Virus genome (UHGV): UHGV-0175782
Source: a virus
DNA: 60,645 nucleotides
Direction: 5' to 3' (one strand)
Part shown: piece by piece, positions 24,483 to 25,557 of the stretch
How the letters are laid out: each line of letters opens with the position of its first letter
How positions within the stretch are numbered: the stretch's first letter is position 1
Notes under the pieces: model-generated
Databases searched by the model: none
Told to the model about the DNA's origin: nothing
What the model saw: the letters and a program-made list of their open reading frames with translations, nothing else
Program-made: the position numbers and the translations under genes

Positions 24483-24540
24483 ACTACAGGTGCCCACCAG
24501 CACATACAGAAAATGATTGTTTCCACATCAAGGAGATTTT

Positions 24541-24559
24541 AATGTTTCACTGAAACATT
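24541..24559. repeat. Perfect 19-bp palindrome aatgtttca-c-tgaaacatt
   Basis: 9-bp arms, 1-nt centre; overlaps the stop codon of the minus-strand small ORF. Confidence 0.6.
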
Positions 24560-24695
24560 AAGTAAGCCAGTGCATAATTCCATTTTTTACTGACCTTAAA
24601 AGCAAAATCAAAACGATGATGAGGATAATAGCCAGAATCTGGCTAATAATAGGCGCATCTAAAAATGCACTCAGGAACTGAAAAAAAGCGTTCAT
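24558..24695 (-). CDS. Small hydrophobic peptide, 45 aa (possible membrane peptide or type I toxin-like)
   Basis: Not in ORF track; ATG with AAGGA about 8 nt upstream; translation MNAFFQFLSAFLDAPIISQILAIILIIVLILLLRSVKNGIMHWLT. Confidence 0.35.
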   Translation of the reverse strand: MNAFFQFLSAFLDAPIISQILAIILIIVLILLLRSVKNGIMHWLT

Positions 24696-25557
24696 TCAGG
24701 TGGTTCCTTGTCAAATGTAAAGGTGCACTTGCTCACGTTGACGTAGAAACCCAACCCCTATATAGTTGGATTCGGTGAATGAAAGTCGTTAACGTGAGCT
24801 TACGGCACATGTTTTCGGAAAAACATCAGGGAACGGCTAATTCCTTGATGCGGGTGGGGTCTGTAATGCAGACCCTATCTATTAACGTCATGATTGCATC
24901 TCAAATTTTCTCCTTATCTTCAATTAATCTACATTCATTTCATCTGTTAGCCACCACAATATGTAGAAAATGGCCCTCTTGCAAGTGCATAACTTTGTGG
25001 ATAACTCAGGAAGGAAAAAGTGGCTTTCGCGCACCTTCGGTCAGACAAGGTGTCCGGGAAAGTCAACGCAAAGAAAAAAATTGTTAAAAATAACGTTTGT
25101 TGGAATTGTATATTTTTATCCTCTTCAATGGTTAGCATTCTATTAACATCTTTTTTTAGAGACAGAAAAACATATCGTAACAACATATATACAGTATTAA
25201 GAGGCGAGTATTATCCTACTGTGGGAATTCTGGGAGCTGTTAGATTCGACTTTCTCAGCAGGATTACATCGTCAACTTGCGACGTTGCCGTATGGCTTTC
25301 GTGTAATAGGTGATAATGATGCGGCTAGTGAGTTACTTGTGAATTTTTTCGGAAAAGGTTTTGTGGCCTCGGATCTAGATGAGCTACAGCAACATGAAGT
25401 GTCTAATTTGATTTTTAGCCATAGCCAATAAGCCTCCCTCCTCCATTAAGGCCACAATTTGTGACATTAAACAATTTGTTTTGTGCCTTTTCTTATTTGA
25501 GAAAATAACGTTGTTGACAGCTAATAGGCTCGTTGTTGTTATACATGCCTGTATAGA

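Follow-up and report, generated by a model that had tools for sequence, protein, structure and literature searches.

The virus genome UHGV-0175782, whose 60,645 nucleotides (nt) are called the window here, holds a gap of 1,075 bp (positions 24483-25557) between the stop codon of a pmgV homologue and that of an upf93.6 homologue. Our analysis leads us to read this gap, with a probability of roughly 0.5, as a composite of two unrelated parts, a type I toxin-antitoxin (TA)-like cassette on its left and a recombination scar on its right. The cassette coincides with a conserved module of 565 bp (Table 1), for which the architecture, the conservation pattern, the retention of a small open reading frame (ORF), the homology to the nrdA promoter and a strand-asymmetric folding were directly established. 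That the module is a functional, portable type I TA cassette working by the mechanism outlined below is a tentative reading of the sequence, which we hold at a little under even odds. By its architecture it would be a new type I TA system with a toxin family of its own, and by the evidence it is a candidate.

In the proposed mechanism, an nrdA-type promoter with two DnaA boxes, derived from the host, would transcribe leftward a leader of ~254 nt followed by a frame for a hydrophobic peptide of 45 aa. A long-range helix formed by the leader would mask the start codon on the peptide messenger RNA (mRNA). A convergent promoter within the leader would make an antisense RNA of ~110 nt with three hairpins, perfectly complementary to the middle of the leader, and the pairing of the two RNAs would block translation or trigger cleavage, destabilising the peptide mRNA. 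The peptide itself would act as a membrane toxin. Both transcripts, the translation, the toxicity and the antisense control are predictions of this scheme.

The small ORF is the only reading frame retained in all lineages, with constant length, and it was intact in 130 of the 130 copies whose loci were fetched, which fell into five variants. The ATG is preceded at a distance of 9 nt by an AAGGA Shine-Dalgarno sequence (24709-24705), for which D6-like plasmids have GAGGA despite a 1-nt deletion there. Between the window and the D6-like plasmids the ORF has accumulated 33 substitutions without any indel or stop codon, although its flanks have indels, and the ratio of non-synonymous to synonymous substitution rates (dN/dS) is 0.41. 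The two peptides differ at 19 positions, mostly conservatively (I/V, L/F, R/K, D/N). With a grand average of hydropathicity of 1.56-1.72, a single long run of hydrophobic residues and a C-terminal tail that is basic, the peptide has the small (<60 aa), hydrophobic, membrane-type character looked for in a type I toxin. We regard it as probable that the ORF is coding. An earlier note on this DNA, made from the letters and a list of ORFs, had found only low-quality ORFs in the gap and had taken a conserved protein-coding gene as evidence against its own interpretation. The minus-strand ORF, kept in every related lineage and across 23% divergence, overturns the former statement and supplies, in a small way, just such a gene.

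Annotation of this ORF is uneven. PGAP (WP_000123562) and the record of Salmonella phage SJ46 give it as a hypothetical protein, the P1 and P7 reference annotations do not list the minus-strand ORF, and most PLSDB plasmid records list no gene under the module. The reference annotations thus missed the conserved minus-strand ORF and listed non-conserved plus-strand Upf ORFs instead. The latter, upfM, upfN and upfO in P1 and upf91.3-91.7 in P7, vary in start, length and frame and are absent or disrupted in D6-like plasmids; they are probably not genes. Collections of 5.8 billion and 1.8 billion proteins contained, as versions of the P1-like 45-aa peptide, only C-terminally frameshifted, fused or truncated ones, which may stem from sequencing errors in the A-run 24594-24589 or be copies inactivated in nature.

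The module is 92-100% identical to the window in P1 and P7-like relatives and 77% identical in D6-like plasmids such as pUTAK-6-1, where a type I restriction-modification system takes the place of pmgV on its left. It was found in 216 of 5,426 complete E. coli genomes (~4%), and was plasmid-borne in every case. Comparison of the window with the D6-like copy revealed a very uneven divergence. The leader core (24732-24928) differs at 15 of 197 positions (7.6%), and the segment with the promoter and the DnaA boxes at 5 of 51 (9.8%). As a feature of the module the core was mapped to 24732-24918, and its right edge is a 17-nt insertion in the D6-like copy. The 45-aa ORF differs at 33 of 138 positions (24%), with a proportion of synonymous differences (pS) of 0.40, and the remaining leader and far upstream parts diverge by 35-43%, with 35-40% in the leader parts beside the core. 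The contrast between core and ORF is significant (Fisher p = 5e-5). Because shared ancestry alone cannot give such uneven divergence, the core must be under strong selection, and selection on the module as a whole is highly likely.

It has to be weighed against this whether the whole 1 kb could be non-functional spacer or decay, conserved through recent common ancestry alone. The right-hand part is demonstrably debris, an IS903 element is tolerated in P7, and the region belongs to the published 'highly variable region' of P1-like plasmids, all as expected of a spacer. A divergence that climbs from 7.6% (core) to 35-43% (adjoining DNA), with pS at 0.40 in the ORF, speaks against such a view, as does the preservation of the module boundaries in different genomic contexts, and we consider a mere spacer very improbable. 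Peptide and DNA patterns searched in species-representative genomes, metagenomes and viral contigs recovered only the same three lineages, plus three chance matches in unrelated metagenome contigs; since only three lineages were found, a deeper covariation analysis was impossible.

The promoter that points toward the small ORF is homologous to the region upstream of chromosomal nrdA in E. coli. The homology shows a single mismatch in its first ~100 nt, is collinear through the -10 hexamer and turns unrelated beyond it. As in an nrdA-type promoter, two DnaA boxes abut collinear -35 and -10 hexamers, and both boxes are invariant in all lineages. Over 115 nt, identity to the chromosomal nrdA upstream region is 82.6% in P1 and 78% in D6-like plasmids. 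By these values the nrdA promoter was captured long ago, and the P7-like lineage appears to have been renewed from a host chromosome. P7-like copies are ~99% identical to the nrdA upstream region over ~100 nt, in a patch that ends near 25103, the limit of homology between P1 and the window, and this pattern suggests a recent gene-conversion patch from the host chromosome in the P7-like lineage. An 'nrdA-like promoter' with DnaA boxes is already noted in P1 records; the old one, M95666, marks the promoter and a DnaA box on the minus strand and assigns no product.

The module promoter resembles that of E. coli nrdAB in having DnaA boxes upstream of the -35 and a collinear -35/-10 pair. It differs in that it would drive a leader and a 45-aa ORF, not ribonucleotide reductase, and in that the two NrdR boxes of nrdA have not been retained. 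The sole NrdR look-alike, CCCCTATATAGTTGG at 24756-24770, was rejected, being single and 2 nt short in spacing. DnaA-dependent regulation of the module promoter may be expected from its sequence. The 3' end of the 45-aa ORF contains another 9-mer that looks like a DnaA box (TTATGCACT, 24577-24569, minus strand) and that shares a 12-nt direct repeat with the promoter-proximal DnaA box; its presence there is probably due to chance.

DnaA boxes in DNA of low GC content also bear on the suggestion, made in the earlier note, that the region is origin-like, or that it titrates DnaA. The two boxes are adjacent, as such a locus might have them. They are, however, the only ones, and both fall within the nrdA-promoter homology; across the whole window, matches to the DnaA-box pattern occur at chance level, and the gap contains no iterons, no tandem or direct repeat arrays and no 13-mer arrays. 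A replication origin, for which a cluster of DnaA boxes or iterons together with an AT-rich unwinding repeat was looked for, was rejected, and the chance that the locus is origin-like or DnaA-titrating is in our estimate minimal. The origins of P1 lie elsewhere, oriR at repA for plasmid replication and oriL in repL for lytic replication.

Folding of 24530-24955 in the minus sense gave a z score of -3.8. In the consensus for the leader, local hairpins are accompanied by a long-range helix between 24915-24890 (AAGGAG ... GAGAUGCAAUCAU) and the start and first codons of the ORF, and several one-sided changes stay paired through G-U in the minus sense. This modelled minus-sense structure is suggestive only. 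Two further frames in the leader were rejected as coding: one of 21 codons (24891-24826), with 1 synonymous against 8 non-synonymous changes, and one of 25 codons, which lacks a Shine-Dalgarno sequence.

On the opposite strand within the leader lies the convergent promoter, annotated as predicted in the P1 reference, both of whose hexamers (TTGACG and TATAGT) are invariant in all lineages. The DNA downstream of it folds better in the plus sense: for 24774-24890 the free energy was -43.2 kcal/mol (z -4.6) in the plus sense versus -29.1 kcal/mol (z -2.6) in the minus sense, and the D6-like copy showed the same asymmetry (-37.5 versus -26.2 kcal/mol). Of the three stem-loops (SL) of the candidate antisense RNA, SL2 (24824-24850) has changes in the loop only, and SL3 (24852-24880) has one compensatory change, U-A to C-G at 24860/24872, as well as G-U to A-U changes at its base. 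The features that could mark an antisense RNA gene are an opposite-strand promoter with 10 of 12 consensus positions inside the leader, a strong plus-sense fold in two lineages and a weak terminator.

Two other explanations of the module were weighed. The module may be a small membrane-protein accessory gene, expressed in the lysogen from an nrdA-type, DnaA-sensitive promoter behind a structured leader, with the plus-strand promoter unused and no antitoxin RNA. The conservation and hydrophobicity of the ORF and the nrdA promoter homology fit such a gene, the changes that preserve wobble pairing speak for a minus-sense leader that is structured and sequesters the start codon, and the terminator for a plus-strand RNA is weak. 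Yet the most conserved 190 nt are the plus-strand promoter and the segment that folds better in the plus sense, the leader is three times more conserved than the ORF, which is unusual for a plain cis leader, and both promoter hexamers are invariant; we consider a plain membrane-protein gene unlikely, if a serious contender.

The core may alternatively be a plus-strand element that acts rightward, as a promoter with an attenuator-like leader for hot or humD, or a trans-acting small RNA (sRNA), the 45-aa ORF being secondary. The module always stands upstream of hot (in P1 and D6-like plasmids) or humD (in the relative L034) in the same orientation, its plus sense folds better, and SL3 resembles a leaky terminator. 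However, the DNA from SL3 to hot or humD is poorly conserved and holds an opposing promoter, separate promoters serve hot (late) and humD (LexA-controlled), and in the window lineage nothing functional follows downstream and the module is nonetheless intact. Such an element would also leave the retention of the ORF across 23% divergence unexplained, and we judge it improbable.

Several observations weigh against the type I TA reading. The consensus structures were derived from the same alignment, of about three lineages, and the only covariation is one compensatory pair. As an intrinsic terminator SL3 is poor, having a weak U-rich tail (UAUCUAUUAAC, given also as UAUCUAUU), and a terminator scan did not list it. 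The region is dual-coded, so that conservation cannot tell which strand is functional. For the ORF, a dN/dS of 0.41 denotes moderate constraint only. The peptide matched no toxin family in Pfam (E up to 10), NCBIfam (E up to 1) or PADLOC, and no homologue outside P1-like elements was found among the 5.8 billion and 1.8 billion proteins. Published screens, finally, report that upfN and upfO are non-essential for P1 lytic growth, and a deletion survey is cited for upfM; this dispensability gives the TA reading no support, though it is compatible with a TA module.

Among known systems, hok/sok of plasmid R1 shares these features with the module: a small hydrophobic peptide behind a long structured leader, a leader-internal convergent promoter for a short, strongly folded cis-antisense RNA (a candidate in the module), predicted long-range pairing over the toxin start codon, a low-copy plasmid as carrier, and a short upstream frame with a strong Shine-Dalgarno sequence in the antisense-target region (AAGGAG 24915-24910, ATG 24891). 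Unlike Hok, the module peptide has 45 aa, no Hok/Gef match in Pfam or NCBIfam, no Cys pair and no periplasmic tail, and there is no mok-like overlap between the upstream frame and the toxin ORF. The window shows a perfect hok-like 5'-3' fold-back (24853-24842 with 24534-24523), which was dropped because D6-like plasmids do not preserve it.

The ldr/rdl loci of E. coli resemble the module in having the antisense gene, a candidate in the module, wholly inside the 5' untranslated region, well upstream of the start codon. LdrD shows a weak local resemblance to the peptide (LDAPIISQILAIILI in the module versus LAAPVIAGILASMIV). Membership in Ldr was rejected, as the resemblance was reached in 13 of 2,000 shuffles with nine toxins tried, which is not significant after multiple testing, and as Pfam Ldr gave no match; the module peptide is 10 residues longer and the promoter type differs. 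More broadly, profiles of the Hok/Gef, Ldr, TisB, DinQ, ShoB, Ibs and Zor families in Pfam and NCBIfam did not recognise the peptide, nor was a match to it found in the PDB.

The tisB/istR-1 and dinQ/agrB systems also have a toxin promoter wired to a DNA-replication or damage signal. Their sRNAs are divergent and partly complementary, and they are under LexA control, unlike the module, which has an nrdA-type DnaA-box promoter and no LexA box. Rfam models for Sok, Rdl, IstR, AgrB, Sib and others found nothing at gathering score in the window, IstR and AgrB having no match there. The covariance-model search of Rfam that the earlier note had proposed thus returned no family: at gathering score the region had no match, and a permissive scan of 24350-25700 gave chance-level matches (E >0.7). 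The suggestion of a regulatory region or non-coding RNA genes is accordingly plausible for the left part, with its nrdA-type promoter, DnaA boxes, invariant convergent promoter and folding conserved segment, but has no counterpart in an Rfam family.

The module is surrounded by replication- or SOS-linked accessory genes, namely lxr, humD and phd-doc, and hot in P1. No C1 operator was found between 17975 and 28994; expression in the lysogen is therefore conceivable, where the cassette could serve in maintenance or under stress. We entertain, at clearly less than even odds, the broader proposal that the module represents a previously unrecognised type I TA family in which a host ribonucleotide-reductase promoter couples the peptide to DnaA and replication, not to LexA, and that it is one of several interchangeable cassettes in the slot beside hot, humD and phd-doc. 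Already on record are the gap itself, its nrdA-like and predicted promoters and the variability of the region; the P1 genome paper aside, the literature yielded no account of a unit of minus-strand ORF, leader and antisense RNA, or of a type I TA system in P1. P1 is a textbook phage and a cloning workhorse, and clinical E. coli and Salmonella commonly harbour P1-like phage-plasmids. If the reading is true, these plasmids would carry a second addiction or stress module beside phd-doc, with a toxin family that has no known relatives, and a mobile element would be borrowing a host cell-cycle promoter (nrdA with its DnaA boxes) to time a membrane peptide.

A different cassette occupies the same slot (2450-3000) in NZ_CP012497 (L005), a P1-like plasmid without the module. 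It includes a full-length, sub-threshold Rfam match to AgrB (26.4 bits versus a gathering score of 40, E 0.02-0.04) with a strong terminator. A 20-nt direct repeat (2662 and 2835) would give this AgrB-like RNA 19/20 complementarity to a minus-strand mRNA. The cassette also has a hydrophobic minus-strand ORF of 31 aa with a terminator-like hairpin behind it. By its sequence this cassette is a candidate dinQ/agrB-style type I TA system. The two cassettes together give a weak hint that type I TA cassettes replace one another in this slot.

The right part of the gap (~25095-25557) is very probably a recombination scar. It begins with a relic of the humD upstream region, in which an 11-nt deletion takes the left half of the LexA box, leaving TATACAGTA at 25188-25196, and from which the humD ATG and first codons are gone; a functional humD with an intact LexA box is present at 26674 in the window. 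Next comes the 3' end of a toprim-domain gene, with 80% identity in tblastn to residues 109-174 of WP_032203392 and the same stop codon. The full-length frame of 175 aa is not preserved: the N-terminal 108 codons are absent and an in-frame stop codon lies upstream. PHROG 17952 ('DNA primase') matches this remnant (1.3e-24), and the DNA of the window from 25223 to 25512 is 88% identical to the 3' end of the toprim gene and its downstream spacer in D6-like plasmids of ~108 kb. In P7 an IS903 is inserted in the remnant at ~25304; the window has no IS903. The spacer holds a 64-nt element (25445-25509 in the window) that recurs, 81-86% identical, between genes of D6-like plasmids and of further ~105-125-kb plasmids from Salmonella, Enterobacter and E. 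coli, where an HD-domain gene lies downstream. The GC stem of this element, AAGGCCAC/GTGGCCTT, is broken in the window, where it reads GTGACATT.

Comparison with relatives indicates how the scar may have formed. In L034, the equivalent of window position 25214 is joined directly to that of 26625, and the window has in addition a 1.41-kb block with the toprim remnant, upf93.6, lxr and a second, intact humD promoter. The scar was very probably left when this block (25215-26624) replaced the arrangement of the relatives. P1 is homologous to the window as far as 25103, after which it has upfO, the late promoter LPhot and hot, so that the hot gene sits where the window has the replacement block. 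No hot gene, encoding a homologue of the theta subunit of DNA polymerase III, was found anywhere in the window, where the upf93.6 homologue takes the place that hot has in P1. From 24300 to 25700 the window is 99% identical to phage P7 (AF503408), Salmonella phage SJ46 and several P1-like phage-plasmids. This right half is ordinary: it records recombination among P1-like lineages and accounts for the location of IS903 in P7.

Much of what the earlier note had said of the gap stands. The gap of ~1.07 kb between the two stop codons is real and contains no ORF of at least 110 aa. It is AT-rich, with the A/T runs described and a GC content of 38.7% versus 48.6% for the whole window, which places it within the lowest 1.6% of 1,075-nt windows. 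The idea of a decayed gene region is borne out on the right, where the toprim gene is truncated, the humD leader dead and the terminator degenerate. Alignment to P1-like genomes, proposed there as a way to detect lost genes, accordingly uncovered gene remnants in the right half, but a conserved module in the left. A TTGACA hexamer does exist, at 25514-25519, one base from where it had been placed (25515-25520); its use as a -35 was rejected, as no convincing -10 hexamer follows at 16-18 nt and the hexamer stands exactly at the homology breakpoint.

Table 1. Coordinates of the gap features and neighbouring genes in the window; the last two rows use the numbering of NZ_CP012497 (L005)
Feature	Position	Strand	Description
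pmgV homologue	24120-24482	+	Left neighbour of the gap
Conserved 565-bp module	24492-25056		Common to P1, P7-like and D6-like (rep_cluster_488) phage-plasmids
Perfect 11-nt inverted repeat	24539-24561		Overlaps the stop codon of the small ORF; AT-rich, no U tail, poorly conserved in D6-like plasmids
45-aa hydrophobic ORF	24558-24695	-	MNAFFQFLSAFLDAPIISQILAIILIIVLILLLRSVKNGIMHWLT; ATG start; candidate membrane toxin
Annotated plus-strand Upf ORFs	24665-24778, 24779-25087, 24970-25146, 25020-25313	+	P1/P7 annotations
Predicted 5' leader of small-ORF mRNA	24696-24949	-	~254 nt; start placed from the nrdA-type -10
Convergent sigma-70 promoter	24738-24766	+	TTGACG-17 nt-TATAGT; 10/12 consensus positions; 'PupfN' (predicted) in NC_005856
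Candidate cis-antisense RNA	24774-24885	+	~110 nt, three stem-loops; 3' end uncertain
nrdA-type promoter	24956-24984	-	-35 TTGCAA 24984-24979, 17-nt spacer, -10 TATTGT 24961-24956; directed toward the small ORF
E. coli chromosomal nrdA upstream homology (ypaB)	24966-25094		95.4% identity over 130 nt
Two DnaA boxes	24984-25004	-	TTATCCACA 25004-24996, TTATGCACT 24992-24984; directly upstream of the -35
humD upstream-region relic	25095-25222	+	Aligns with DNA directly 5' of humD in L005 and L034
toprim-domain gene 3' remnant	25231-25431	+	66 codons and stop of a 175-aa gene
Decayed terminator/promoter spacer	25432-25512	+	Follows the toprim gene in relatives
upf93.6 homologue	25558-25914	-	Right neighbour of the gap; 118 aa; PHROG 5797, unknown function
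lxr homologue of P1	25915-26499	-	194 aa; gene after the upf93.6 homologue
AgrB-like RNA (L005)	2840-2921	+	Candidate, sub-threshold Rfam match
31-aa hydrophobic ORF (L005)	2504-2599	-	Followed by a terminator-like hairpin

Scans of every short ORF in the gap against Pfam, PHROGs, NCBIfam and PADLOC returned only PHROGs of unknown function and the primase fragment, and PADLOC gave no significant match for the 45-aa peptide, the upf93.6 homologue or the lxr homologue. A scan for transfer RNA (tRNA) and transfer-messenger RNA genes found none within the gap region. Three tRNA genes, for Asn-GTT, Thr-TGT and a tRNA with a CAT anticodon, are located at 3015-3168 and 4600-4675 in the window.

The statement that genes elsewhere overlap or are separated by less than 100 bp could not be upheld, as other ORF-poor gaps exist, for example at 33174-34326 (1,153 bp), 59294-59957 and 4326-4955, and the gap studied here ranks second in length among stretches of the window without an ORF of at least 110 aa. 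The largest such stretch, 33174-34326, contains three matches to the P1 C1 operator consensus (33268, 33732 and 33815) and is presumably an immunity or control region with small genes.

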